From assembly GCA_038065415.1 (NCBI GenBank), contig JBBTRA010000005.1, forward strand, positions 8,079 through 72,078: a stretch of 64,000 bases of DNA. Direction: 5' to 3'. Made by a program: the position numbers and the translations under genes. Below are positions 15,393-61,225 of this stretch, one piece after another; position 1 is the first letter of the stretch, and each line of letters opens with the position of its first letter. Below the pieces are notes generated by a model. It was given only the letters and a program-made list of their open reading frames with translations, ran no database searches and was not told where the DNA came from. The stretch is from Patescibacteria group bacterium. GTDB taxonomy: Bacteria > Patescibacteriota > Minisyncoccia > Phycocordibacterales > PALSA-1337.

Positions 15393-15501
15393 ATGTCGAT
15401 CCTTTGGTTGTGCGTTGTGCCTGCGTTTGCTTGTTTTATACTCTTTTTTGGGGTATTCTGCAAGGTACGCCGTTTCGGGCTTTTTTACATATATAGATAT
15501 T

Positions 15502-15570
15502 GCGGGATCGTCTAATGGTAGGACACAGCTCTCTGAAAGCTGGTATCTTGGTTCGAGTCCAAGTCCCGCA
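15502..15570 (+). tRNA. tRNA-Gln (anticodon CTG)
   Basis: Cloverleaf folded by hand. Acceptor GCGGGAT pairs with GTCCCGC, with discriminator A. D-arm TCT/GGA. Anticodon stem CAGCT/AGCTG with loop CTCTGAA, giving anticodon CUG. T-arm CTTGG-TTCGAGT-CCAAG. No CCA is encoded. Confidence 0.8.
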
Positions 15571-15993
15571 GCACGTAGACAAAGTTCGAACATGAACTAG
15601 GCATGCCCACATGCTGCAGTCACTCAGAATCGAATCTATTTAGATACTTTTCTGGTCTTTATCCTCTCATTCATTCTCATCATTTTGGCTATGTACGTCA
15701 CCTTGCGGTATATCGCTCCAAGCCCTTTCATCATGGCTTCTATTTGGCTCATGATCTCTATTGGAGATGCGTCGCTGGGAATGTAAGACATCGTTTGTGT
15801 TGTTTACCCGCTCGCAGTTCGACTAGCTCTGCGAGCACAGCTCGTGCGGTGATATGGGCTGTGCGGGAGATAGTGTATTCTGTAGAAGAGGGGGATGGTA
15901 GACGGGTAGATTTGCCGGGAGTGGTAAGTTCACGAGTCTATGTACTTTCAGGAAAATAGGGTATAGAATCATCACTATTCACCAACCTCTAAA

Positions 15994-16887
15994 ATGATTC
16001 AATTTGCAACGAGTACAATAAATGCAATGGATTTGATTACACTCTCACAAAGTATTGCACAGCTTAATTTAGGCTATCTTGGAATATCGGTAGCTATTCT
16101 GGGTGTACTGGGCGGAGTGTTTGTTTATTTTAATATAAGACCTTTAAAAGAAACTCTGGAGAAGCAAGAAAAGAAGATTGAAGAATTAAAGAAAGAAGCA
16201 CAGGGTCTGTTAAAACAGTCTTTAGAACAATCCTCAGTAACCTTGGAAGCTTTTAAAAAACAACAGGTTGAACTGCTCTCGACAAGATTTAAACAGCAAG
16301 AACAAAATATTGCTCTTGAAACTACAAATAAGATTCAAGACTTGGAAAAAATACTTTTGATAACGATTGACAATGTGTCTGAAACTAAAGACACGAAACT
16401 AAGAGAGATTATATTGTCTAAGACCAATAACTTAATATCAGAAAAAGAGAAGGATTTAATAATGCAGATTACTAATACACGAGAATCTGTAACTAAGGAA
16501 ATTTCGCAAACCAACACAAGTATTGCGAGTTTGAGGGCACATTTTAAACAAGTTCACGAAAGAGTTAAGGAACTACAAGTTTATAAGTATAGCAAGGAAG
16601 GAAAAATGGGTGCCGTAATTTTTTCAACCGAGCTGCTCAAAGATGCAATCGACGATTATTTTAACTTGAGAAAGACCACGCCTTCTGTTGATAAGAATTT
16701 AGGTGGTTGGAAGATAGAGTTGAGATTAGATGAATTGTTGAAGGAAATTGGAGACAATATAATGGAGGGGGAATATGCGTCAGAAATCCTCGCTCAACTT
16801 GATAGGCTTATGAATGAAAAAATATTTGCGGATAAAATTGAAAATATCAGGAAGATGTGTAAGCTGGAAAAACATCCACGGCTGTAA
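15994..16887 (+). CDS. Membrane-anchored coiled-coil protein (island gene)
   Basis: N-terminal TM helix 'LGYLGISVAILGVLGGVFVYF', then about 250 aa of K/E/Q/L-rich heptad-like sequence. AT-rich codon usage differs from the flanking genes. Confidence 0.45.
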   Translation: MIQFATSTINAMDLITLSQSIAQLNLGYLGISVAILGVLGGVFVYFNIRPLKETLEKQEKKIEELKKEAQGLLKQSLEQSSVTLEAFKKQQVELLSTRFKQQEQNIALETTNKIQDLEKILLITIDNVSETKDTKLREIILSKTNNLISEKEKDLIMQITNTRESVTKEISQTNTSIASLRAHFKQVHERVKELQVYKYSKEGKMGAVIFSTELLKDAIDDYFNLRKTTPSVDKNLGGWKIELRLDELLKEIGDNIMEGEYASEILAQLDRLMNEKIFADKIENIRKMCKLEKHPRL

Positions 16888-16978
16888 ATTAAATCGCGTA
16901 GATGGTTAAACGAGAAGGTCCTGAAATATGGCCATTACTGTCTTAACTTTAAAACCCCTTCATTACTCGCGGCTCACC

Positions 16979-17416
16979 TCACTTTTTCCAATTGATTCCC
17001 GTGATGATAATAGAAGCCAGAACAATGAGTGGAACAGAAAGCATAAGTATAAAGGAAACAATAGTTGAACCGCCCCAGAAGTAAACTTGCCATCCAGAGA
17101 GGGTATTGTTCTGGGTTGAGAGTGCTGCAAGGGTGAGAGGGATAATGTAGGAAGCAATTCCGATGACGACCCAAGTATTGGTGAATTTTAGTGCACGTTC
17201 ACTCAGTTTATCTCCCAATATGGCAAAGAAAATATAGTCGACAACATAAGCAACAACGATAATACAACCCGATAGTGAAATATTCTGGTTGATGGATAGG
17301 GCCAGAAATAGAACGAGAATGGTGATCGTAAACTGAAGTCGAGTCTCAATCCTATCTATAAGCCTATCCTTACTTACTGTCATGTTGGTGATCTGGCTTA
17401 AAGAGAGTAGCTTCAA
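16979..17416 (-). CDS. Small polytopic membrane protein (island gene)
   Basis: Four predicted TM helices. The real start may be the internal ATG at 17383 (MTVSKD…). Confidence 0.4.
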   Translation of the reverse strand: MKLLSLSQITNMTVSKDRLIDRIETRLQFTITILVLFLALSINQNISLSGCIIVVAYVVDYIFFAILGDKLSERALKFTNTWVVIGIASYIIPLTLAALSTQNNTLSGWQVYFWGGSTIVSFILMLSVPLIVLASIIITGINWKK

Positions 17417-17537
17417 TCTCTGGATGTTTCTCGGCCATGCGGATAGCCTCCTTTACGGCATTAATATTGCGCTGACCTCGGGTCTTTCCAGGCATCTTTG
17501 TTGCGTCTACTACATTGTATATTACCCTCGGCTTCAT
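17370..17537 (-). CDS. Possible small protein (55 aa), unannotated
   Basis: ATG…TAA ORF 'MKPRVIYNVVDATKMPGKTRGQRNINAVKEAIRMAEKHPEIEATLFKPDHQHDSK', with GGAAG 12 nt upstream. It lies below the 60-aa track cut-off and its stop overlaps the start of the next minus-strand gene. Confidence 0.25.
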   Translation of the reverse strand: MKPRVIYNVVDATKMPGKTRGQRNINAVKEAIRMAEKHPEIEATLFKPDHQHDSK

Positions 17538-17776
17538 GCGCCTATTTTACTTCCTATGCGAAATAGTTGCCACTCCTGGCAAATCCACCCCTCTTCACTC
17601 AGTTCCACATATCATCGATACTACCGGAATGATATAACAGGAACCAATCAGACAAGGTGAAGGAAGGGGACATACAGACGCTTCGAAAGAAGTGGTAGAT
17701 TGCTCTTATCAATTTATCATTTGTATTGTATAATGTTCGAACGTCGTCCTTATAACCCAGCCAACTTGAGATAGGT

Positions 17777-18367
17777 TTGGAGTCCGAGAAGCATATTATG
17801 GACAGCGATATATATAAACAACAAATAGATTTCTACACTCTTGAGTTAGAGAAGATTGGGAAAATCCTTTCGGATCAGACTGCTGGAACAGGCACCTTGC
17901 TTACAATTGTCGGTCTCTTGTCTTTTCTCCCTCAGCTACTGATTACAAATAATGAATACATCTCATACTTTTTACTTTGGACATTTTGGATTCTAATAAT
18001 AGCTATTGCTACTTACTGGCCAGCTTCTCTCAGAGTTTCCTCAATTGTAAAAGGACACCCTTTTGCTAGCACTGGTTCATCATTGGAAATTGAAATTCTA
18101 AAAAACAGAAATGACTATTTTGATATAGTTTGGAAAAAGTCTGTTGAGAATCATGATGCTGTCCTATTTTGGAATAGTGTGAGTAAGTCCTTGCTGTATG
18201 CGTATTTATTCTCGCTCGTATCGAACTTTTATGTGTTCGTTTTCCATGGAACTCCAGATTTTTGTACTTCGTTGACACTACTCACAATCTCTGTAATTAT
18301 TGCTTTGCTTCTTTTTTGGATACCGCGAATGAAGTCACAGAAAGGTAGAGTTATAGGTGATAAATAA
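17777..18367 (+). CDS. Polytopic membrane protein (island gene)
   Basis: At least four hydrophobic helices. No recognisable domain. It is 114 nt upstream of the AlbA_2-like gene. Confidence 0.4.
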   Translation: MESEKHIMDSDIYKQQIDFYTLELEKIGKILSDQTAGTGTLLTIVGLLSFLPQLLITNNEYISYFLLWTFWILIIAIATYWPASLRVSSIVKGHPFASTGSSLEIEILKNRNDYFDIVWKKSVENHDAVLFWNSVSKSLLYAYLFSLVSNFYVFVFHGTPDFCTSLTLLTISVIIALLLFWIPRMKSQKGRVIGDK

Positions 18368-18481
18368 TCCATTCCGAGGAGCATCAAAGTGCTATAATTA
18401 GTTTCATCAAAATAACCTTGTGGGGTAAGGCATAGAAATGTCCGAATCCGATGAGGTCAGCACTTAAATTAAGTTATTACT

Positions 18482-19447
18482 ATGTCCCAAAGTTCGCAAA
18501 AAATTTATGAGAATTTACGTAGTATAGATGATGTTAATAGATTAATTGTAGAAAAAACAACAGAGGGATTGTATTTAGAATTCAAAGAAAAAAGTAATAA
18601 ATCACAACCAGATCTGAGTAACTCTGATAAAGAGAATTTTAGTGAAGCGTTATCTCAGTTTGCAAACTCAGACGGTGGAGTTTTAATTTTTGGAGTTAAA
18701 ACATCTAAGCCAAATGATTATGCTTCAGAATTATCTCCCATAATAAATCCGAAGGAGTTTCTTCATAGACTTTTAGATTTCGCATTGTATGCTGTACAAC
18801 CAAGTGTTGATGAGTTAGAAGGGAAAGTAATTGATAATGACGACAAGTCCGGATTTGTCATATTTCTGATACCTGCTAGTCTGAAGACTCCACATCGATC
18901 ACTTGTTACTAGGGAGTATCTTAAAAGAGGTCAAAATGGTAAATATAAAATGGAACATTTTGACCTTGAGGATATGTTCGGTAGAAGACAAAAACCATCT
19001 TTGTCTATCGAATTAATACCAGTTACTAAAAAGAAGTTATCACTTTTACATGAAGATAAAAGTGTAATTGGGTATTTAGGGTCACTTGAATATGATATTT
19101 TTATTCATAACGATGGTAGAGCTGTTGCAAAAAACTCACTTCTCATACTAACCTCGTCCAGTGATAAACTTGCAAAGTTCGAGGTAGTCCCTACACATGG
19201 TTCAGGTGCTGTTGTATCTAATATTTCAACCATTCGATTAGGGACGCCCACAGTTCAAATCTCTCTTGTAAATTCAATCTTTTACCCTACTGTAGCTGGA
19301 AGAATAGCAACACTTAAACTGAGAATAAGTATTTCTGATTTTGATTCTATGAATAATGTCCCAATTTCGTGGGCTGTGTATGCTGAAGATATGGCAAGTA
19401 AAATAGGTGTTGTTAATGTTGAATTCAAAAATCAAATCGAATTCTAA
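18482..19447 (+). CDS. AlbA_2 / Schlafen-like (divergent AAA-4 'putative DNA-binding') domain protein with an unknown beta-rich C-terminal domain
   Basis: The N-terminal ~130 aa carry the family hallmark 'TTEGLYLEFKEKS…' (E-x-x-x-L-E-F-K) followed by 'DGGVLIFGV'. The C-terminal 190 aa have no recognisable motif. Confidence 0.5.
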   Translation: MSQSSQKIYENLRSIDDVNRLIVEKTTEGLYLEFKEKSNKSQPDLSNSDKENFSEALSQFANSDGGVLIFGVKTSKPNDYASELSPIINPKEFLHRLLDFALYAVQPSVDELEGKVIDNDDKSGFVIFLIPASLKTPHRSLVTREYLKRGQNGKYKMEHFDLEDMFGRRQKPSLSIELIPVTKKKLSLLHEDKSVIGYLGSLEYDIFIHNDGRAVAKNSLLILTSSSDKLAKFEVVPTHGSGAVVSNISTIRLGTPTVQISLVNSIFYPTVAGRIATLKLRISISDFDSMNNVPISWAVYAEDMASKIGVVNVEFKNQIEF

Positions 19448-19729
19448 TGATATACTTACCTTATAAATCCCTGAATGCGGAAAGTGTAAGGACTTTGAAA
19501 TACAGATAAATTTTCCTTACCAGTTTCCTTCTTTTTTGCGTTAAGGTTCTTACGTCGTCTAAGTCCTGCAGTAGTCATGGTCGGTGGTCATCAGACCACG
19601 ACACATCAAGTAAACAAAGGATATTTTGGAAGCGCTAAATTAGTGTCCTAGACGGGTCATTTCGCGTTCTATATTTTAGGCCACGAAATCGATTCGAATC
19701 TCAGAGGGTTTTTCGCTATACTTATACCT

Positions 19730-20101
19730 ATGAAGCCTCCAAGTGAAGCAACACTCAAGCGCGTATACGGGTACATCTTTGCCAAGGTATATCCGATGTA
19801 TATCGCTAAGGCAGAGAAGAAAGGTCGAACCAAAGAAGAAGTCGACGAGGTCATTCGCTGGCTCACGGGATACACTCAAAGCAAGCTGAATGCGCAGATC
19901 AAGGAAGAGGTGAACTTCGAGATGTTCTTCAATGAGGCGCCCAAGCTCAACCCTTCGCGCAAGCTCATTACCGGCATGATCTGTGGTGTTCGGGTGGAAG
20001 AGATTGAAGACAAAATCATGCGCGAGGTTCGGTATCTCGATAAGTTGGTTGACGAGCTCGCTAAGGGAAGACCGATGGAGAAAGTTCTGCGTAAGTCATA
20101 A
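19730..20101 (+). CDS. DUF2200-like conserved hypothetical protein
   Basis: '[30 protein letters not shown]' matches my memory of the DUF2200 family consensus. This was not verified by a search. Confidence 0.45.
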
Positions 20102-20112
20102 TACCTACATAT

Positions 20113-20883
20113 ATGCACGAATTCCTCCTATTTGGTCTCAAGCAAGCCCGCGCGGCCATATTTGCCGGCTCTTTCTTTTTGCTACTTTTCCTTTCGAACT
20201 ACATCCCGCTCTTCGGTTTGGCTCGGTATGACTTCTTGTTCATTGCTGCGGTGTTGATCCAGGCAATTTTGTACTTCACGAAGCTGGAGACCAAAGATGA
20301 GGTGAAGGTTATTTTCTTATTCCATATCATCGGCCTTATCCTCGAATTGTACAAAACAAGTCCAGGTGTTGGTTCCTGGAGCTATCCCGAGGATGCGTTT
20401 TTCAAGATCATGACCGTGCCTCTCTACAGTGGTTTTATGTATGCGGCAGTCGGGAGTTACATCAGTCAGTCTTGGAAAATTTTGAAACAGTATGTTACCA
20501 ACTACAACCACTATGGATGGAGTGTCGTGCTCGCCGCACTCATCTACCTCAATTTTTTCACCAATCATTACATATATGACTTCAGGATATTCCTGATCAT
20601 TGCAGTCTTTGCGCTCTTTTGGAAGACAAGGATATATTTCACAGTCATGACCAAGGTTCGTTGGATGCACTTGAATACAGGATTCCTCCTAGTCGCTTTT
20701 TTCATCTGGATAGCGGAGAATATATCGACATATCTCGGTGCATGGCAGTATCCAGATCAGATTCATGTGTGGAGTGTTGTTTCTACGAGCAAGATAACTT
20801 CGTGGTTCCTGATGGTTATTATCAGCTTTATTTTGGTTGCATATCTGAAGCATTTTAAAAAAGATGTGTTGAAGAAGTCGTAG
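20113..20883 (+). CDS. Integral membrane protein (DUF817-like?)
   Basis: Seven or eight predicted TM helices. The family assignment is from memory only. Confidence 0.45.
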   Translation: MHEFLLFGLKQARAAIFAGSFFLLLFLSNYIPLFGLARYDFLFIAAVLIQAILYFTKLETKDEVKVIFLFHIIGLILELYKTSPGVGSWSYPEDAFFKIMTVPLYSGFMYAAVGSYISQSWKILKQYVTNYNHYGWSVVLAALIYLNFFTNHYIYDFRIFLIIAVFALFWKTRIYFTVMTKVRWMHLNTGFLLVAFFIWIAENISTYLGAWQYPDQIHVWSVVSTSKITSWFLMVIISFILVAYLKHFKKDVLKKS

Positions 20884-20981
20884 ATATATATGACTATTGA
20901 AGCTATACTTTATACACACGGGAACTTGACCAAAAACTCCGCTTTGTATATAGTGTAATTATCACACTAATTAAATATATT

Positions 20982-21680
20982 ATGGCGTATACCAAAGTGA
21001 AAAGACTATTAGGAACCAAGAAGGAACATATCGAACAATTAAAGGTGGGAGTGATTATGTTTGCAGCCACTACGGTATACGTCCTTCTGTCAAAATACTT
21101 CGTTCCCAATTATAGTTTGAATGTATTTGAGTTTATTGGGACCTGGGCGGGTCTTATATGCGTATGGCTTTCACGCACAAGGAACATTCTTTGCTGGCCA
21201 TGGGGAATAGTCAGTTCACTTGCGCTCGGAGTATTTTTTAGTCAGATTGGTTTACCTGGCCAACAGTGGCTCAATTGGGGCTATTTCGTAATAATCCAAT
21301 TATGGGCTTGGCCGCATTGGGCATTTGGTGGAAAAGAGGATACCGAACTTCCTGTCACCGTGTTATCGTGGAAAGGAAGAATCCTGACTTTGGTATTCAT
21401 GGTCTTGGGGACCGTACTAGCATATTCCCTTATTGATGTTTTCGTTCCAGGTTCTTTGTACCCGTGGCTAGATGCTTTGGTTGTAACTTCGAGCGTGATT
21501 GCCCAGTTTCTTCTAGGAAGAAAGAAAGTCGAAAGCTGGATACTTTGGCTTGGTCCGGTGAACTTGGTCTCGATCGCCCTATTCTTCTTAGCAGGTGCTT
21601 ATACGCTTACCGCCTTGTATGTCGCCTTCTTTATTCATGCCGCTTTTGCTCTTACTACGTGGACTAAAGTTAATAAATAA
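20982..21680 (+). CDS. pnuC: Nicotinamide riboside transporter PnuC
   Basis: 7-TM protein with the PnuC signature Trp-rich helices (…CWPWGIVSSL…, …WAWPHWAFGGK…). It is followed directly by nadR. Confidence 0.75.
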   Translation: MAYTKVKRLLGTKKEHIEQLKVGVIMFAATTVYVLLSKYFVPNYSLNVFEFIGTWAGLICVWLSRTRNILCWPWGIVSSLALGVFFSQIGLPGQQWLNWGYFVIIQLWAWPHWAFGGKEDTELPVTVLSWKGRILTLVFMVLGTVLAYSLIDVFVPGSLYPWLDALVVTSSVIAQFLLGRKKVESWILWLGPVNLVSIALFFLAGAYTLTALYVAFFIHAAFALTTWTKVNK

Positions 21681-21688
21681 GCAAGTAT

Positions 21689-22678
21689 ATGTTTCATCGA
21701 GGAATTGTTATTGGAAAATTCTACCCGCCTCATCGAGGCCATAAGTATTTAATTGATACGGCTCGCTCGCAGTGTGAACAGCTTACCGTAATTGTCTGTT
21801 GGAAAAAATCACAATTTATCTCTGGAGTAGAGCGGGCTCGTTGGATCCAAGAAATTCATCCTGACGTTCAGGTAAAACTTCTTGATGACGATCGTCTCGC
21901 AGATGATGACTCAGAAGGGTGGGCAAAAAACACGTTGGATGTGTTGGGATTTACGCCTGATGCTGTATTTACATCTGAATCATACGGCGATCCATATGCG
22001 TCTTTTATGGGATGTGTCCATGTGTTGGTTGATAAGGCGCGTACGTATATTCCTATCTCGGCAACAATAGTACGAAGCGATCCTACGAAATATGCACAAT
22101 TTCTCGAACCGTGTGTTCGAGCATCGTTTGCTCGACGTGTATGCATTCTGGGTGCAGAATCCACAGGTACTACGACCTTATCCAAGGATCTTGCAAAACA
22201 CTATAAGACAACATGGGTGCCTGAATATGGGCGTTTGTATTCAGAAGGAAAGATGTTTGGCGATGAAAATGCCGCATGGCGAACGGATGAATTCATCAAA
22301 ATAGCAAAAGCTCAAGGTATTCTTGAAGATGCCTTGGCAGAAGCATCAAATGGTTTGGTCATTTGTGATACGGATGCATTTGCCACCGGAGTTTGGCATG
22401 AAAGATATCTAGGTAAACGATCGGCTCAAGTTGAAGCCATTGCTGCCCGAAGAAAATATGACCTGTATATCTTAACGGGGGATGAAATTCCTTTTGAGCA
22501 AGACGGAACAAGGGATGGAGAACATATTCGTCATGATATGCAAAAACGATTTGTTGAACGTCTTACTGAAGATGCAAAGAATTATATTATCGTATCAGGA
22601 AACAGGGAGGAACGTTTGCAAAAGGCCATAGCGGCTATTGATGCTATACAGCCAATGGTCGTGGATAATGCCAAATAA
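21689..22678 (+). CDS. nadR: NadR-type bifunctional NMN adenylyltransferase / ribosylnicotinamide kinase (no HTH domain)
   Basis: N-terminal nucleotidyltransferase motif 'GKFYPPHRGHKYLI' (HxGH). C-terminal P-loop 'LGAESTGTTTLSKDLA' in the NRK position. The P-loop lysine is replaced by Thr. Confidence 0.75.
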   Translation: MFHRGIVIGKFYPPHRGHKYLIDTARSQCEQLTVIVCWKKSQFISGVERARWIQEIHPDVQVKLLDDDRLADDDSEGWAKNTLDVLGFTPDAVFTSESYGDPYASFMGCVHVLVDKARTYIPISATIVRSDPTKYAQFLEPCVRASFARRVCILGAESTGTTTLSKDLAKHYKTTWVPEYGRLYSEGKMFGDENAAWRTDEFIKIAKAQGILEDALAEASNGLVICDTDAFATGVWHERYLGKRSAQVEAIAARRKYDLYILTGDEIPFEQDGTRDGEHIRHDMQKRFVERLTEDAKNYIIVSGNREERLQKAIAAIDAIQPMVVDNAK

Positions 22679-48634: not shown

Positions 48635-50482
48635 ATGACGCAAACGCATGCACTCGATATTTTGAAGACGGGCAAGAATGCTTTCATCACTGGGCCTGCG
48701 GGCTCGGGTAAAACCTACGTAGTCAATCAATATATCCGGTATCTCAAGGATCACGGCGTGCCGCTCGGCATTACCGCCTCGACAGGTATCGCCGCTACTC
48801 ATATGGGAGGAGTTACTATACATTCATGGTCAGGCATCGGTATCAAGGATAGTCTCGGCATCCACGATCTGCAGGAGTTGTCCGAGCGTGCCCAAGTACG
48901 CCGCAAGATCGAAGAAGCAAAAGTTCTCATCATCGATGAGGTATCTATGCTTCATCATTTCCGTCTCGATCTCGTGGATCAAGTGCTCAAACATATCAAG
49001 AAAACAGAAGCACCCTTCGGGGGTATCCAGGTGGTGCTCTGCGGAGATTTTTTTCAACTGCCCCCAGTTTCGCGTATGGGAGAGCCCGCGGCGCGGTTCG
49101 TCTATAACTCCGATTCATGGAAGCGGGGCAATTTCGCTATTTGCTATCTTTCTGAGAACTATCGCCAAGGTGTCGATGAGGCGGTGAATATCCTCAATGA
49201 GATCCGGAGTGGAGAAGTTTCTGAGCAGTCATACGAGCTCCTCATGACGAGGCACGCAGGGAAGCGTGTCAATGAAGAGTGGTCTGAGCCCGTTGTCGGA
49301 GATGCGGCTGACGATCTTTTGAGTGAGAAGGCAGCATCAGCAGATGCTGGCACTGTTGCTCCAGAGATGGAACCGACGCGTCTCTATACGCATAATATAG
49401 ATGTCGATAGCATCAATGAGCGCGAGATCGGCAAGATATCTGGCACAGAGTGTGTCTATGAGATGATCACCAAGGGTAAGAAGCCGCTCATCGAAACGCT
49501 CAAGAAATCCTGTCTCGCCCCGGAAAAACTCCGCCTCAAAAAAGGCGCTCGTGTCATGTGTGTCAAGAATAATTTTGAAGAAGGGTATGTGAACGGTACG
49601 CTTGGCGTGGTCGTCTCGTGTGGCTGGGGTATCGACCCGGTCATCCGCACAGCTTCTACGCCAGATCATCCGGAAGGGAGAGATGTCACTATTAAGACTG
49701 TTGACTGGACTATCGAGGATGATGGCAGGATCATCGCACAGATTACCCAGTATCCGCTTCGTCTGGCATGGGCTATCACGGTACACAAGAGTCAAGGTAT
49801 GTCGCTCGATGCTGTCGAGGTCGACCTGTCAAAATCATTTGAGCCAGGTATGGGGTATGTCGCTCTCTCTCGTGTTCGTACGCTTGCTGGACTCTCCATC
49901 CTCGGCATGAATGACCAAGCGCTTCGTGTGCATCCGGAAGTCCTGGAGCAGGATGCGCGTCTTCGCGATCTTTCTGACAAAGCCGAGAGTATCATAGAGT
50001 ATACTGATAGTACTGAGATCAAAAGGGCTCATGATGAATTTCTAGCGAAGGTAGCGCCTCTCCACTACATGAAGCCGGGAGTTGGAGGTCGGAAGAAAGG
50101 GGTGTTGGGTGGATCCGAGCTCGCGCAGAAAGTTTCGACACTGGAAAGAACGGTTGCCCTTGTTAGGAACGAGAAAACCATCAAAGAGATGGCGGAAGCA
50201 CGAGACATGGTTCCTGAAACGATTATCAGTCATATCGAGAAGCTTATCGAGCTCGGTCCAGAGAGCGGGGGGCTTTCTCAGAGTGACATCGCGTATTTGA
50301 GAAAAGATATCTCCAATCCTCATTTTGCGAAGATAGAGAAAGCGTTGCAAGAAGTTGCTGACAAACAGACAGACGGCAAGCCACCGCTCCTCTCTCCGGT
50401 CAAAGGTAGGATCAAGGGCGCGAGCTCATTCCGTGATATTCAGTTGGCACGGGTACTGCTTGGGTATATCAAGAAGAAATAA
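48635..50482 (+). CDS. Pif1/RecD-family SF1 helicase with C-terminal helix-turn-helix extension
   Basis: Walker A 'GPAGSGKTYV'. Walker B 'LIIDEVSM'. 'VLCGDFFQLPPV' (Pif1 motif III). C-terminal section 'VHKSQGMSLD' (SF1 motif V/VI). An extra C-terminal domain of about 170 aa. Confidence 0.75.
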   Translation: MTQTHALDILKTGKNAFITGPAGSGKTYVVNQYIRYLKDHGVPLGITASTGIAATHMGGVTIHSWSGIGIKDSLGIHDLQELSERAQVRRKIEEAKVLIIDEVSMLHHFRLDLVDQVLKHIKKTEAPFGGIQVVLCGDFFQLPPVSRMGEPAARFVYNSDSWKRGNFAICYLSENYRQGVDEAVNILNEIRSGEVSEQSYELLMTRHAGKRVNEEWSEPVVGDAADDLLSEKAASADAGTVAPEMEPTRLYTHNIDVDSINEREIGKISGTECVYEMITKGKKPLIETLKKSCLAPEKLRLKKGARVMCVKNNFEEGYVNGTLGVVVSCGWGIDPVIRTASTPDHPEGRDVTIKTVDWTIEDDGRIIAQITQYPLRLAWAITVHKSQGMSLDAVEVDLSKSFEPGMGYVALSRVRTLAGLSILGMNDQALRVHPEVLEQDARLRDLSDKAESIIEYTDSTEIKRAHDEFLAKVAPLHYMKPGVGGRKKGVLGGSELAQKVSTLERTVALVRNEKTIKEMAEARDMVPETIISHIEKLIELGPESGGLSQSDIAYLRKDISNPHFAKIEKALQEVADKQTDGKPPLLSPVKGRIKGASSFRDIQLARVLLGYIKKK

Positions 50483-50552
50483 AAATCCCCTCAGACACGG
50501 GATGTCTAAGGGGAGATGAAGGGGTTCACTCTCTGCTCAAGGAGCTCAACGG

Positions 50553-51071
50553 TTAAAAGGCCAGCCGCTCTTCGAGACGTTCTCGGTAGAGCTTCCGGAG
50601 TTCTTCCGGTGTGATGGTTTCTGGCGAGAGTCGCCATGTGAGCTTCGGGAACAGGGAGGGCTCTTCGGCCGCCTGCTGATCGATGGTGAGCATGATGCTA
50701 CATCCGCCGATGCTGAGTTCGAATACGTATCCGTTGACATGGTGGCGCAGCTCCTTGCGGAAATGCGTCTTCATTTTGCAGAACCAGTCGTTCACGATGA
50801 ACGTGGTTTCTGAGACTTTGGATTTGACCATCTCGGCCGCTTTGATGAGCGCCTCGACGATAACCTGTTCCAGCTTCTGGTTTTTCAACTTGTGAGGCAA
50901 GTTGTTGCCCAGTGTGCAATCTACGAGCGGTCGTTGCGGGACCGCCGACAGTGCTTTTTTAGTCTTCATACGATATACGATCTTCTTGTGTTTTGTGTGT
51001 TCTGTGTTTTCTGCAGTACGACGGATACGAATATCCTGAAGGAGTTTACCACTGTATATTTGAGGTGTCAA
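50553..51071 (-). CDS. Hypothetical protein
   Basis: ORF. The probable start is the internal ATG (MKTKKALSAV…). No motif recognised. Confidence 0.35.
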   Translation of the reverse strand: MTPQIYSGKLLQDIRIRRTAENTEHTKHKKIVYRMKTKKALSAVPQRPLVDCTLGNNLPHKLKNQKLEQVIVEALIKAAEMVKSKVSETTFIVNDWFCKMKTHFRKELRHHVNGYVFELSIGGCSIMLTIDQQAAEEPSLFPKLTWRLSPETITPEELRKLYRERLEERLAF

Positions 51072-51143
51072 TCATTTGAGATGATTCTGATGAGTATAAA
51101 AAAGCCCCGGATAATCTCCGGGGTGTAAGGGTCGAATACATGG

Positions 51144-51782
51144 TCACGCAGCTCTTCGCATGGACTCTCGCGGCTGAACATCGGGGACCGATGGGCCGCG
51201 CGCCTGGGCGAATTTGATCGGAGAACGGCGGAGGAGGGTGCCGAGGCAGAAGTCTGCGAGCGGCAATACCACGTTGAAGTTCTTCGTCATATAGCGGTGA
51301 TGGAGCAAATGATGACCGTTGATCATCCGGAATACTTGGTACCGCTCGATCAGACGCTGTTTGGGTGCGCGCGGCAGATGCATGCACCAATGCGTGTATT
51401 CATAGGTCGCATAATAGACCGAGAAGGCGCCGAAGATGCCGAACACTGCGGCGGTGGCTGACCCTAATGGTATGAGCCACGAACCGTGGATGAGGTTGAT
51501 CGCGGTGATCGGGATGATCGCCCATAGCAGGGTATTGATGAGGATGAGCACGGGGCCATTCCACCAAGCCATGGGTATGGTCCACTTGTCCTCCTCTTGG
51601 ATGAGGTGGTATGTGTGGTCAGCCTTGAAGGTCTGATGATGAACGACGGCGTGTGCCTTGAAGGCATAGTCGAATTTCCCGAGGGGCCGGTGCATGACGT
51701 ATCGATGCAGGACCCACTCGAAGAAAGACGCTATGCAGATGCCCACGCAAAACGTGAGCCCGAAGATGAGTATCGGATGCAT
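51144..51782 (-). CDS. Fatty-acid hydroxylase superfamily membrane protein (desaturase / hydroxylase-like)
   Basis: Four TM helices. Histidine boxes 'HAVVHHQ', 'HWCMH' and 'HHLLHHRY'. Confidence 0.65.
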   Translation of the reverse strand: MHPILIFGLTFCVGICIASFFEWVLHRYVMHRPLGKFDYAFKAHAVVHHQTFKADHTYHLIQEEDKWTIPMAWWNGPVLILINTLLWAIIPITAINLIHGSWLIPLGSATAAVFGIFGAFSVYYATYEYTHWCMHLPRAPKQRLIERYQVFRMINGHHLLHHRYMTKNFNVVLPLADFCLGTLLRRSPIKFAQARGPSVPDVQPRESMRRAA

Positions 51783-51842
51783 ATGTTCCTTATGTGTTGA
51801 GTTTTGAAATGACCAAATTCAGGCATAAGTATAGCATGGGGT

Positions 51843-51950
51843 CCCCAGAGGTGTGCGCATGTATTCTGCAATACATCGTTGTGTCGGTACACGAAACTTT
51901 AGGCAACCGTTCTGCGATGTATTGCAGAATACATGCGCACACCTCTGGGG
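51843..51950. repeat. Perfect 36-bp inverted repeat with a 36-nt spacer, in the divergent promoter region between the desaturase and DEAD-box helicase genes
   Basis: Arm 1 at 51843-51878 is CCCCAGAGGTGTGCGCATGTATTCTGCAATACATCG. Arm 2 at 51915-51950 is its exact reverse complement. The two mirror-image ORFs in the track (51794-51991 plus, 51790-51987 minus) are artefacts of the palindrome. Confidence 0.9.
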
Positions 51951-52055
51951 ATCGTGTATTTTGTAGAATATTGACTTTTTCCACCAAGTAGTTTATAGTA
52001 TATACCTAATAGATTTCTCATTGTTTGCCTCTGTATCGAATATATAGGCCTATCG

Positions 52056-53462
52056 GTGGGAGTAAGCCCACAGGGCATATATCATATGTATAACAAGCAT
52101 TCTAGCGGTGCGGGCCATAGTGGCTCGAACCGATCGTTTAGTCATAATAAGCCAGCCGGGCATAGTTCACGCCCAGGAAGTCATTCAGCGCGTCCGGCAA
52201 GTTCTGGCGGTTATCAGGGTCACAATCCTCGTAGCGCCGCGAGCCGCTTCGGCGGTTCTCATGGTCACTCGGGATCTCGCGGTCCGAGCCGCTTCGGTGG
52301 CAATCGTGGCGGGGGTAACCGCGGAGGTGGTTCTCGTGGCGGTAGGGGCGGAGGATTTTCGAAATATATCGACATCAGCAAGTTCGTCAATAAGGCTGTC
52401 ATTACCGAGACGGTCGACAATTTCGTGCCTGATCATGCGTTCGTTGATTTTCACATCGAGGCGCGTCTCAAGGCGAACATTGTCACCAAGGGATATATCA
52501 CCCCAACTCCGATCCAGGACAAGGCCATTCCGCATGTCCTTCGCAACGTAGATCTCGTCGGTATCGCTAACACGGGTACCGGTAAGACTGCAGCATTCCT
52601 CATTCCGCTCATCAACAAGATTCTCCTCAATCCTAAGGAGAAGATCCTCGTCGTCGTTCCTACACGCGAGCTCGCTCAACAGATCGAGGAGGAGCTCAAG
52701 GGGTTCACGAAGAACCTTCCGATCTGGTCTGTCTGTTGTGTCGGAGGTGCGAGCATCGTACCCCAACTCAAGGGTCTCTCACGACAGAATCAGTTCGTCA
52801 TCGGTACACCAGGACGTCTGCGCGATCTCATCGAACGCGGTCGTATCCGTCTTGCCGAGTACAACACGGTTGTTCTCGATGAGGCTGATCGTATGCTTGA
52901 TATGGGATTCATTACTGACATCAAGTTCATGATCGCCGGTATGCCCAAGGTTCGTCAGACACTCTTCTTCTCAGCGACCATGTCGAAGGAGATCGAGGCA
53001 CTCATCGGCCAGTTCCTCACCGATCCAGTCAAGATATCCGTGAAGACTGCTGATACTGCAGCATCTGTAGATCAGGACATTATCCGTGTTCCACCAGGAG
53101 CGAACAAGCTCGACATCCTCGTCGATCATCTCAATCAGCCTGGCTTCACCAAGGTTATTATCTTCGGAAAAACCAAGCATGGTGTGCAGAGGCTCGCTGA
53201 AGATCTCGTCAAACGCAAGATCATGTCAGAGGCTATCCATGGCAACAAGAGCCAGGGCCAGCGCATGCGTGCACTCCGTGCGTTCAAGGAACACTCAGTC
53301 AAAGTACTCGTAGCGACCGATGTGGCCGCTCGCGGTCTCGATATCTCCGGCGTCACGCACGTCATCAACTTTGATATTCCTGCTACCTACGAGGACTACG
53401 TCCATCGTATCGGTCGTACAGGCCGTGCCGGCAAGAAGGGGAAGGCGCTTACGTTCGTGTAA
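52056..53462 (+). CDS. DEAD-box ATP-dependent RNA helicase with Gly/Arg-rich (RGG) N-terminal extension
   Basis: Q-motif region 'GYITPTPIQDKAIP'. Motif I 'ANTGTGKTAAF'. 'VLDEADRMLD' (DEAD). 'FSAT' (SAT). 'HRIGRTGRAG' (motif VI). The N-terminal ~100 aa are low-complexity GGSRGG/RGG. Confidence 0.85.
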   Translation: MGVSPQGIYHMYNKHSSGAGHSGSNRSFSHNKPAGHSSRPGSHSARPASSGGYQGHNPRSAASRFGGSHGHSGSRGPSRFGGNRGGGNRGGGSRGGRGGGFSKYIDISKFVNKAVITETVDNFVPDHAFVDFHIEARLKANIVTKGYITPTPIQDKAIPHVLRNVDLVGIANTGTGKTAAFLIPLINKILLNPKEKILVVVPTRELAQQIEEELKGFTKNLPIWSVCCVGGASIVPQLKGLSRQNQFVIGTPGRLRDLIERGRIRLAEYNTVVLDEADRMLDMGFITDIKFMIAGMPKVRQTLFFSATMSKEIEALIGQFLTDPVKISVKTADTAASVDQDIIRVPPGANKLDILVDHLNQPGFTKVIIFGKTKHGVQRLAEDLVKRKIMSEAIHGNKSQGQRMRALRAFKEHSVKVLVATDVAARGLDISGVTHVINFDIPATYEDYVHRIGRTGRAGKKGKALTFV

Positions 53463-58304: not shown

Positions 58305-58814
58305 ATGAAAAAAGTTACCGTCAATGATCGAATGCAGAAAGGATATGTCTACGAACTGACTGAGCCAGTCGGTCAGAACTTCCATCCTGACTTCAAGCCG
58401 CACCTTACGCCACAGGAGATGCTGGAGGTAGGTGTCTTCGGGGGGATATATATGCGTGACTGTCGGGATGAATTTCCAGTGGAATGGTTCGAGAAGGCGA
58501 AATTAGCCCCAGGGGGTAGTATGAAGCATGATCCGAAGATTAATTTCTTCGGCGTGAATGCGAGTCAGTCTCTCTCGGTCTGGAAAGCGAAAGGATGGAT
58601 ACATCCTGACGATCCGCGAGGGTGGTTTCAGTGGTATTGCAGGTATCATATGGGCCGCCGGCATGTTGATGACAAGAGGCAAATCAAGCGTTGGAAGAAT
58701 ATGGTCCGTCATGTCGCACAGATCGTCAACAAGTGCCGGCCTCGGGATTATTCCTGCAATACGCGACAGCGTCAGGCACTTCTCCACTGGGCATACGACA
58801 GTCGCAAGCTCTGA
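58305..58814 (+). CDS. Conserved hypothetical protein (Trp/Arg-rich)
   Basis: ORF containing 'GWIHPDDPRGWFQWYCRYHMGRR'. No family confidently recognised. Confidence 0.4.
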   Translation: MKKVTVNDRMQKGYVYELTEPVGQNFHPDFKPHLTPQEMLEVGVFGGIYMRDCRDEFPVEWFEKAKLAPGGSMKHDPKINFFGVNASQSLSVWKAKGWIHPDDPRGWFQWYCRYHMGRRHVDDKRQIKRWKNMVRHVAQIVNKCRPRDYSCNTRQRQALLHWAYDSRKL

Positions 58815-59923: not shown

Positions 59924-60092
59924 AATCTCATATATCCAGAGTGCAGGGAGGGAACTAGCCCCATGATCTGCCAGCAACCCTTTCATATCGGCCCGTTCAC
60001 GGAATCTGATGTGGAAGAAGGTGCTCCATCTAGCCCTTGCGGGAAAGATAATATACTCAATTATCAACCTCTTTCTCCTCGGGAAAGAGGTT
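59924..60092 (+). ncRNA. SAM-I (S-box) riboswitch with Shine-Dalgarno-sequestering hairpin
   Basis: P1 'CTCATATATC…'. 'AGAGTGCAGGGAGGGAACTAGCCCCATGATCTGCCAGCAACC' matches the S-box core (AGAGaGGcaGAGGGAcUGGCCCgAuGAagCCCGGCAACC). 'GGTGCTCCATCTAGCCCTTGCGGGAAAGAT' matches the P4/P1-3' region. A 10-bp hairpin AACCTCTTTC/GAAAGAGGTT at 60066-60092 pairs the GAAAGAGG ribosome-binding site 13 nt before ATG 60104. Confidence 0.65.
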
Positions 60093-60103
60093 GTGCTTAT
60101 ATT

Positions 60104-61225
60104 ATGAAAGGAAATGAACCAGTCGCGCCTATACTCGTGCGCAGTAAGACATACCGTTGGCCGGGTATTGATGCGGATCCACCCTACAAGTATTCACGAG
60201 GCGCGAATCCGACGAGGACTATTCTCGAAGAAGCGCTTATTAAAAATGAGGGTTTCTCAGGAAAGCTTCATGCTGCAACATTCGCTTCGGGAATAGCTGC
60301 TGAATCAGCATTCTTCCTATCGCTTTCACCGGGTGATAGGGTGTTGCTGTGTGATGAGATATATGGTGGCACATATCGTTTGTTCGATAAGGTACTCAAG
60401 CGGTTCGGTATCGAATGTGATTTTGCGGATTTCAATGATGTCGATCAGGTGCGCGCGAAAATCACGCCGAAGACCAAATACTTTTTTGTGGAGCCAATGA
60501 GTAATCCATCCCTTGTAGTTACTGATATGCAGAAAGTCTCGTATCTGTCACAGGAGACAGGTATTCCATTCGTAGTTGACGGCACATTCTGCCCAGCTCC
60601 TACATTCAATGCTTTTGAATACGGTGCCGAAGCGGTCATCTATAGTCTGAGCAAATATTTTTCAGGTCACAACGATGCGCTTGGCGGAGCAGTGTTAACG
60701 AAGAATGAAGTATTGCAGACGCATCTCAGGTTGATGCAGACAACACTCGGTGCAGTTCTTTCGCCCGACGAATGTTACCGAATCATCCAAGGGATGAAGT
60801 CACTACCGATCAGGTGGAGACATACCTCTGAAAGCGCACTTCAAGTCGCAGGATGGCTCAATGTGCACCCGAGCATAAAAAAAGTTTCATACCCAGATTT
60901 ACCTTCACATCCTCACCATGAGATTGCTCGTGCGCAGTTCCCGCGAGGTTGTGGAGCGGTGATCGCTTTTGAGCTAGTGGAAACTGAGAAATCAAAAATC
61001 TCAGCTTTTGTTGACAGGATTATTTCGACGGGATGTGTGGTATTCGGTGAAAGCCTTGCAAGTCCGGAGACGATATTGGCGTATCCGCGTATCATGAGCC
61101 ATAGGAGTCTTTCTGATGAACAACGCGCGGCGCTTGGTATCAGCGATGGGTCGTTCAGGTTGTCGGTTGGATTTGATGAATCAGAAAAAGTGATCGGGAG
61201 TTTCAAACAAGCTTTGGAAACCTGA
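60104..61225 (+). CDS. Cys/Met-metabolism PLP-dependent enzyme (cystathionine gamma-synthase/lyase or O-acyl-homoserine sulfhydrylase family)
   Basis: PLP-lysine motif 'YSLSKYFSGHNDALGG'. Fold-type I overall pattern. Preceded by a SAM riboswitch. Start at ATG 60104, inside track ORF 59963-61225. Confidence 0.8.
   Translation: MKGNEPVAPILVRSKTYRWPGIDADPPYKYSRGANPTRTILEEALIKNEGFSGKLHAATFASGIAAESAFFLSLSPGDRVLLCDEIYGGTYRLFDKVLKRFGIECDFADFNDVDQVRAKITPKTKYFFVEPMSNPSLVVTDMQKVSYLSQETGIPFVVDGTFCPAPTFNAFEYGAEAVIYSLSKYFSGHNDALGGAVLTKNEVLQTHLRLMQTTLGAVLSPDECYRIIQGMKSLPIRWRHTSESALQVAGWLNVHPSIKKVSYPDLPSHPHHEIARAQFPRGCGAVIAFELVETEKSKISAFVDRIISTGCVVFGESLASPETILAYPRIMSHRSLSDEQRAALGISDGSFRLSVGFDESEKVIGSFKQALET

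Follow-up and report, generated by a model that had tools for sequence, protein, structure and literature searches.

What kind of element is a long and perfect hairpin that stands between two divergent genes, and how did it come to lie there? The question is raised by a locus in a Patescibacteria MAG from Hainich groundwater, analyzed here within a single stretch of 64 kb (hereafter the window). The original prediction, made from the letters of this DNA, saw in the hairpin a possible shared cold-responsive operator or structured RNA, and named a miniature inverted-repeat element as a further candidate. The evidence assembled below makes it very probable that the hairpin is a lineage-specific insertion, and neither a conserved operator nor a leader RNA. 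A fuller statement, in which the hairpin is a young, single-copy, lineage-specific palindromic insertion of 110 bp that arose in one step by template switching and uncoupled two promoters, is offered tentatively, as a reading that is plausible but falls somewhat short of probable.

The inverted repeat and its flanking genes

The layout of the locus is as originally described, with a fatty-acid-hydroxylase-superfamily gene (51144–51782, minus strand, 212 aa) and an RGG DEAD-box RNA helicase gene (52086–53462, plus strand, 458 aa) that diverge from a common intergenic region. Assignment of the former is based on its NCBI name, 'fatty acid hydroxylase [Patescibacteria group bacterium]', and on the presence of PF04116 in many of its homologues; the protein itself has no Pfam match above any threshold, and its NCBIfam match is sub-threshold. 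Homologues from a clade of unnamed metagenomic proteins (L012–L014) are 63–70% identical to it. Beyond this clade the named homologues, at 61–66% identity, all belong to Verrucomicrobiota, which suggests an old transfer of the gene between phyla into this Patescibacteria clade. Downstream of the hydroxylase gene is a 138-aa ORF (50553–50969, minus strand), an orphan that has no Pfam or NCBIfam match and matches only itself among 5.8 billion clustered proteins. The helicase carries an N-terminal low-complexity extension of about 115 aa, rich in Gly, Arg, Ser, and His (coded at 52086–52430, plus strand), the DNA of which holds imperfect 25-nt repeats at 52240–52339. In CshA, RhlE, and DeaD the basic extension is found at the C-terminus.

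The perfect inverted repeat between these genes is in fact 1 bp longer on each side than the 36-bp arms first reported. A repeat search gives two 37-nt arms, 51842–51878 (arm 1, TCCCCAGAGGTGTGCGCATGTATTCTGCAATACATCG) and 51915–51951 (arm 2, the exact reverse complement of arm 1), which are 100% complementary and enclose a 36-nt spacer, or loop (51879–51914), without a match in anything searched. The whole element occupies 51842–51951, a length of 110 bp. Its boundaries are sharp, since the bases that adjoin the arms are noncomplementary both on the outside (G/T) and on the inside (T/G). Arm 1 contains an 18-bp sub-palindrome, ATGTATT-CTGC-AATACAT (7+4+7), at 51859–51876. The ATG of the hydroxylase gene, at 51782, is 59 nt from arm 1, in agreement with the distance of about 60 bp given earlier. 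The 104 bp given for the helicase applies to a GTG at 52056 but not to the conserved start, the ATG at 52086, which is 134 nt from arm 2.

The assertion that such a repeat is far beyond chance is amply justified, as only about 1.3e-15 perfect 37-nt inverted repeats would be expected from the base composition of 64 kb with spacers of up to 400 nt. When as many as 3 mismatches are allowed, the arm is found at just these two sites in the 64-kb window (0 of 100 shuffles matched), and the runner-up inverted repeat within the window has a length of 29 nt and a match of 76%. The computed fold of the element is −86.7 kcal/mol as RNA (z = −13.6) and −50.9 kcal/mol as single-stranded DNA (z = −13.9). 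The only ORFs that span it are two mirror-image frames of 65 aa, a by-product of the palindrome.

Amplification chimeras can yield inverted duplications, and k-mer graphs are broken by hairpins. An artefact of assembly or amplification, in the form of a chimeric fold-back, is nevertheless hardly credible at this locus. In a SPAdes-style ENA contig of 140,985 bp (L001; Hainich groundwater, 0.1 µm fraction), the hairpin is internal and has normal flanks. Two further sequencing runs independently gave both arm–flank junctions, with the expected overlap of k − 1: in one Logan contig (L002, ERR3858120) the outer 30 nt of the arm, neither more nor less, form the start and lead into the left flank, and another (L019, ERR3858121) likewise starts with the outer 30 nt and continues into the right flank. 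Breaks of this length (k = 31) are the behavior of a de Bruijn graph at a true inverted repeat, and the hairpin is therefore not an assembly artefact. The inverted repeat is real and perfect, and both of its junctions are seen in independent assemblies.

Promoters, leader, and empty sites in relatives

A sigma-70-like promoter for the helicase gene, TTGACT-17-TATAGT (51971–51999, plus strand), is assigned from prediction and conservation; its −35 hexamer is separated by 19 nt from arm 2, which lies to its left. For the hydroxylase gene a putative extended −10, TGcTATACT (51828–51836, minus strand), is assigned from its match to the consensus and from its conservation, being invariant in the window and in two relatives, L014 and L013. 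It lies 5 nt to the left of arm 1. None of these three sequences has a recognizable −35 at the hydroxylase promoter, which would rely on the extended −10. Between arm 2 and the helicase −35 is a 19-nt A+T-rich stretch, tcgtgtattttgtagaata (51952–51970), that is not conserved in relatives; it either came with the insertion or is left over from the ancestral spacer.

The helicase promoter is followed by a leader, delimited by alignment (52000–52085, plus strand), that measures about 80 nt and is predicted to fold into two helices. It is strongly conserved in eight loci with differing upstream neighbors, which are the window itself, L003 (5912–6000), L004 (5899–6000), L007 (5900–6000), L009 (60–144), L017 (216–303), L014 (64–152, minus strand), and L013 (360–450, minus strand). 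The conserved blocks include TCTCATTGTTyGCCT, ATAGGCC, and GGTGGGA..GCCCAC. In the RNAalifold model, which has 16 pairs, UCUCAUUG pairs with CGGUGGGA around an inner GCCU/AGGC helix; the pairing shows several one-sided G-U/G-C changes and zero compensatory changes. No Rfam family was found for the leader. It may represent a kind not yet described, with an autoregulatory or cold-responsive role in the expression of DEAD-box helicases in Patescibacteria. To judge from the alignments, the conserved noncoding feature of the locus appears to be the helicase promoter with its leader, not the hairpin. Elsewhere in the window, a SAM-I riboswitch (59930–60054, plus strand; 50.4 bits, above gathering) is situated upstream of, and overlaps, the called start of a 420-aa ORF (59963–61225), the true start codon of which is probably further downstream than called.

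Helicase homologues with 79–86% protein identity gave a set of syntenic loci (L003, L004–L006, L007/L008, L009/L010, and L017). In a blastn comparison of the window with its closest relative, L003, homology is lost after the PIF1 helicase gene (50478) and is regained exactly at 51971. This position is the first base of the helicase −35, and homology to all of the relatives starts there. An alignment of six loci has invariant columns only from the −35 onward (the −35, the −10, and the leader of about 80 nt) and none upstream. Immediately upstream of the −35, L003 has an unrelated 108-aa ORF, L004 has a co-directional gene whose ordinary terminator abuts the −35, L007 and L017 have other genes, and L009 has a different palindrome. 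It appears from these comparisons that promoter, leader, and helicase gene behave as a fixed module beside a rearrangement hotspot.

The DNA directly upstream of the helicase −35 (50479–51970 in the window and 5336–5882 in L003, together with the corresponding regions of L004, L007, L008, and L017) differs in nearly all relatives in its genes, their orientations, and its length, and the breakpoint among the relatives falls exactly at the −35 hexamer. The palindrome in L009 is also met in L010. These Logan contigs, which come from different runs, begin (L009, 1–30; L010, 1–25) inside a perfect palindrome, CCCGAGTCGCACCTC/GAGGTGCGACTCGGG, that abuts the helicase −35. Because L009 begins exactly 15 nt, or (k − 1)/2, to the left of the palindrome center, the arms must be at least 16 nt long, and the contig start is a fold-back break of the graph. 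This palindrome is probably the terminator of the upstream gene, as in L004.

The most informative relatives are L014 and L013, in which the hydroxylase is 68% and 63% identical, respectively, to that of the window. Both have the same divergent hydroxylase–helicase pair, and neither has the hairpin. Both retain the helicase leader, −10, and −35, and on the opposite side the TGcTATACT, leader, and start of the hydroxylase gene. In an alignment of the three sequences, read on the hydroxylase-sense strand, AGTCAA is separated from TGCTATACT by 3 nt in L014 and by 28 nt in L013. The corresponding interval in the window is 134 nt, made up of 19 nt, the 110-bp hairpin, and 5 nt. L014 and L013 are thus natural empty sites with conserved sequence on both sides, from which it follows that the hairpin is extra DNA inserted between back-to-back core promoters. 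Removal of the 110-bp block from the window leaves a spacer of 24 nt, TATTCTACAAAATACACGA+CCCCA.

Two other accounts of the distribution were considered and set aside. Joint acquisition of the hydroxylase gene and the hairpin by horizontal transfer was suspected because L003 lacks the hydroxylase, and is ruled out by the presence of the gene pair without the hairpin in L014 and L013. Hairpins might also be a habit of the whole clade, but a search of about 70 kb from relatives, and of the upstream regions of five hydroxylase homologues, revealed no long inverted repeat.

Helicase −35 and hydroxylase extended −10 form a tight divergent pair in the empty-site relatives (150–200 in L014, 3 nt apart; 450–530 in L013, 28 nt apart). 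To judge from the sequences, this spacing is unusually tight and should force competition between two polymerases. The insertion would widen the distance from the 3 nt of L014 or the 28 nt of L013 to 134 nt. Since polymerase footprints would overlap on promoters that are 3 nt apart, the insertion should uncouple the promoters, such that two RNA polymerases that competed ancestrally for overlapping DNA could bind independently. The hydroxylase promoter would, in addition, have its upstream region occupied by new sequence. Formation of a cruciform under the negative supercoiling that results from divergent transcription is conceivable; an unpaired center of 36 nt makes extrusion of a cruciform unfavorable. 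The locus is a clean natural case: a long perfect palindrome has come to separate two overlapping divergent promoters, and relatives with empty sites are at hand for comparison. As such it is useful for the study of promoter-architecture change in the streamlined genomes of Patescibacteria and of the birth of perfect hairpins.

Operator and RNA readings of the hairpin

An operator shared by two genes should be conserved with its gene pair. Comparison of orthologous intergenic regions, which the original prediction had proposed as a check, reveals that the hairpin is missing from L014 and L013 even though the same genes and promoters are present. The reading as a shared cold-responsive operator is therefore unsupported, and the locus gives no evidence for a cold-shock regulon or for a new regulatory RNA.

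It is also unlikely that the hairpin is an operator peculiar to this lineage. In such a scheme the two inverted 18-bp palindromes, ATGTATT-N4-AATACAT, one in each arm, would serve as binding sites for a dimeric or tetrameric regulator of the hydroxylase promoter, the helicase promoter, or both. Palindromes of the 7+4+7 type are bound by dimeric regulators, arm 1 covers the expected −35 region of the hydroxylase promoter and starts 5 nt from the TG of the extended −10, and selection could underlie the perfection of the arms. Against this, the absence of the element from relatives with the same gene pair and promoters means that it is not the ancestral control. No regulator gene is adjacent, the neighboring 138-aa ORF being an orphan without family match. 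Moreover, 37 bp of perfect symmetry are unnecessary for an operator, and the outer parts of the arms have no internal symmetry.

A recurring operator motif was sought in the window and rejected. The sequence TGTATT-N4-AATACA, with up to 2 mismatches, is not enriched (4 matches vs. 2.0 expected). The 9-mer GTATTGCAG occurs 6 times against an expectation of 0.57, but the four extra sites (2693, 58634, 58754 on the minus strand, and 60710) are all within long coding ORFs and have neither shared flanks nor a common context. This motif was noticed post hoc, and its excess is probably due to chance and ascertainment. Two of the GTATTGCAG sites, 97 nt apart, form a weak 16-nt inverted repeat (58634–58762).

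A bolder version, which must be rated slightly less likely again, regards the hairpin as an old DNA element that is actively maintained. The sequence TCCCCAGA in L013 would then be the remnant of an earlier copy at the same site, and either selection or constant homogenization by template switching would preserve the perfect match of the arms. Acting as a tandem-inverted operator or as a supercoil-sensitive cruciform, the element would couple or insulate the promoters of the helicase and the membrane-lipid hydroxylase, and so provide this ultra-small groundwater bacterium with a switch, specific to its lineage, that responds to temperature or stress. Should transcript or binding data show a function, the hairpin would be a rare regulatory element datable to a single mutational event.

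The proposal that the hairpin acts as a structured RNA fares worse. As a thermometer, an RNase III processing site, or a terminator/insulator, it would have to be included near the 5' end of either the hydroxylase or the helicase mRNA, which is very improbable. The fold is very stable, a perfect duplex of 37 bp would be a substrate for RNase III, and a moderately T-rich tract, TCGTGTATTTTGT, follows the stem when the plus strand is read. But both conserved promoter elements are downstream of the hairpin. Because it lies upstream of the helicase −35/−10 as well as of the hydroxylase extended −10, and hence of both likely transcription starts, at about 52006 on the plus strand and about 51821 on the minus strand, it should belong to neither mRNA, barring an unseen promoter, and no promoter-like site is predicted upstream of the hairpin on either strand within the intergenic region. 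On the basis of promoter prediction and conservation, then, the hairpin is probably not transcribed in either mRNA. Its distances from the start codons, 59 and 134 nt, are too large for it to mask ribosome-binding sites in the manner of a thermometer, and it is not conserved in L014 and L013. No Rfam family matches the hairpin at the gathering score; in the permissive E-value mode only eukaryotic miRNA-precursor models respond, with 39.7 and 17.4 bits vs. cut-offs of 100 and 80, which is what any long hairpin gives.

Origin of the insertion and its nearest known counterparts

Searches for other copies and for a source of the inserted DNA yielded nothing. The 64-kb window, to which the copy number refers, contains no further copy; more than 90% of the genome lies outside it. 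The outer and inner arm 22-mers have 0 exact matches in 185,579 species-representative genomes (GTDB, 596 Gb) and 0 in JGI metagenomes, collections that do not include the window's own genome. In IMG/VR, 20-mers from the loop and inner arm have 0 viral matches, and a single 19-mer match (L011), inside GC-rich repetitive coding DNA that has no inverted repeat, is a chance match. Neither the masked window nor 17 related loci contain a possible source above chance, and searches of plasmid and phage records found no similarity to the hairpin. No transposase, integrase, or RAYT is present among the annotated parts of the window. An island-like feature lies at some distance from the hairpin, where tRNA-Gln(CTG) (15501–15572) is followed by a stretch of low G+C (16000–22000; 37–43% vs. 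about 50%) that encodes several proteins without a family together with Schlafen/AlbA_2, DUF2200, DUF817, and an NMN transporter; no integrase or transposase was found in it.

Several classes of element with inverted repeats are incompatible with what is observed. In an inverton, inverted repeats surround a promoter-bearing segment of a length that a site-specific recombinase can invert, and the recombinase gene is nearby; here the enclosed segment of 36 nt is below the minimum length for inversion, it contains no promoter-like site, and no recombinase is seen in the neighborhood. Integron attC sites are imperfect palindromes with extrahelical bases and with GTTRRRY / RYYYAAC core sites at their ends. 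The arms of the element are perfectly paired, and its ends, TCCCCAGAGG and CCTCTGGGGA, contain no GTTRRRY. Tn3-like ends and dif/Xer sites do not fit in end polarity, spacer length, or the perfection of the pairing.

An origin in one step would be provided by a template switch during replication or repair, in which fold-back copying would write a perfect reverse-complement copy of neighboring sequence. Template switching produces perfect stems of tens of bases per event, and patterns of up to 59 bp (PMC8794818), and it homogenizes the arms of inverted repeats in Proteobacteria (PMC5941160). The expansion of inverted repeats near promoters has recently been described in yeast (PMC13100816). Such an origin is consistent with the perfect arms, with the single copy, and with the lack of a target-site duplication, no direct repeat of 2–12 nt being present for any symmetric choice of boundaries moved 0–8 nt inward. 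Also consistent is a 5-nt direct repeat at one junction, where TGGGG at the end of arm 2 (51946–51950) repeats the TGGGG of the left flank (51837–51841) in an asymmetric arrangement. The 28-nt spacer of L013 carries, in the same orientation, the terminal 8-mer of the arm, TCCCCAGA. The alignment of this spacer with the arm beats 1992 of 2000 shuffles, although the 8-mer by itself, which 94 of 2000 shuffles match, is not significant; the similarity was found post hoc and gives a weak hint that the arm may be related to the ancestral spacer.

Several observations weigh against a template switch. Only one arm would be copied, so that the second arm, the loop, and the flank of 19 nt, about 97 nt in all, must have existed beforehand, and no relative has so long a spacer. 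No microhomology was found at the inner switch point. The G+C content of the element is 50%, vs. 36% in the remaining intergenic region, and in this respect it resembles imported DNA more than native promoter-region sequence. The perfection of the arms could reflect selective maintenance instead of youth.

The same difference in composition is one of the attractions of the alternative origin, which is possible although on balance unlikely. Here the hairpin would be a solo non-autonomous mobile element of the hairpin type that landed in the promoter spacer. It might be a MITE whose terminal inverted repeats measure 37 bp, or else a doublet of the REPIN kind mobilized in trans, without target-site duplication, by an enzyme of the IS200/IS605 or RAYT type. 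The hairpin is a discrete block of 110 bp that is missing at the empty sites of L014 and L013, it has no coding capacity, and both its overall size and the length of its arms are those typical of bacterial MITEs, which are short and noncoding (about 50–500 bp) and bounded by terminal inverted repeats. A single copy is not prohibitive, since MITEAba12 is found in numbers down to 1 per genome (PMC10969869). A REPIN consists of two inverted REPs and a spacer that together form a hairpin, with inter-REP spacings of 71 or 110 bp in SBW25 (PMC3116915). The layout of the element is similar, each arm containing the small palindrome ATGTATT-N4-AATACAT and the arms being inverted, 73 bp apart from start to start.

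The absence of a target-site duplication speaks against a MITE, since arms so perfect imply a recent insertion, in which any duplication that was made should still be intact. The element is single copy and without a RAYT in 64 kb, the k-mer and similarity searches described above produced no exact match of 19–22 nt that can be counted and no link to a plasmid or phage, and no similar hairpins occur in the relatives. The earlier suggestion of a miniature inverted-repeat element thus survives as one of two candidate origins, though no duplication and no second copy support it. The available data slightly favor a template switch over a mobile element but do not separate them. Additional copies in the full genome would document a hairpin-type mobile element in this phylum, in which mobile elements are probably scarce.

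Comparison with known systems helps to place the element. With the palindromic operators of divergent promoter regions it shares a site between two divergent genes and dyad symmetry. Such operators are typically 14–30 bp long and are conserved with the genes that they control, whereas the hairpin extends over 110 bp, is mostly devoid of site-like substructure, and is missing in relatives. Bacterial MITEs such as Correia, RUP, ERIC, and Rickettsia palindromic elements are likewise noncoding and intergenic, often adjacent to promoters, about 100–150 bp in length, and able to form a long hairpin from long terminal inverted repeats. These families are multi-copy, usually have target-site duplications, and have an identifiable parent IS, none of which was found here. 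REPINs mobilized by RAYTs also consist of two inverted small-palindrome units and a spacer in a hairpin of about 100 nt, and no target-site duplication is expected of them. In contrast to the hairpin, which has an unpaired spacer and, within the window, occurs once and is accompanied by no RAYT, they are present in tens to hundreds of copies per genome along with a cognate RAYT.

Template-switch mutations of the quasi-palindrome or fold-back kind differ from the element in that about 97 nt of nonduplicated extra sequence also set the window apart from the empty sites, no ancestral state with one arm is seen, and the G+C content is above that of the local intergenic DNA. They correspond to it in being single-event, perfect reverse-complement copies, tens of bases long, that are present once, lack a target-site duplication, and have no associated genes (PMC8794818, PMC5941160). 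The nearest known kinds are thus the inverted repeats generated by template switching and the small palindromic mobile elements, namely MITEs, REPINs, and the Rickettsia palindromic elements.
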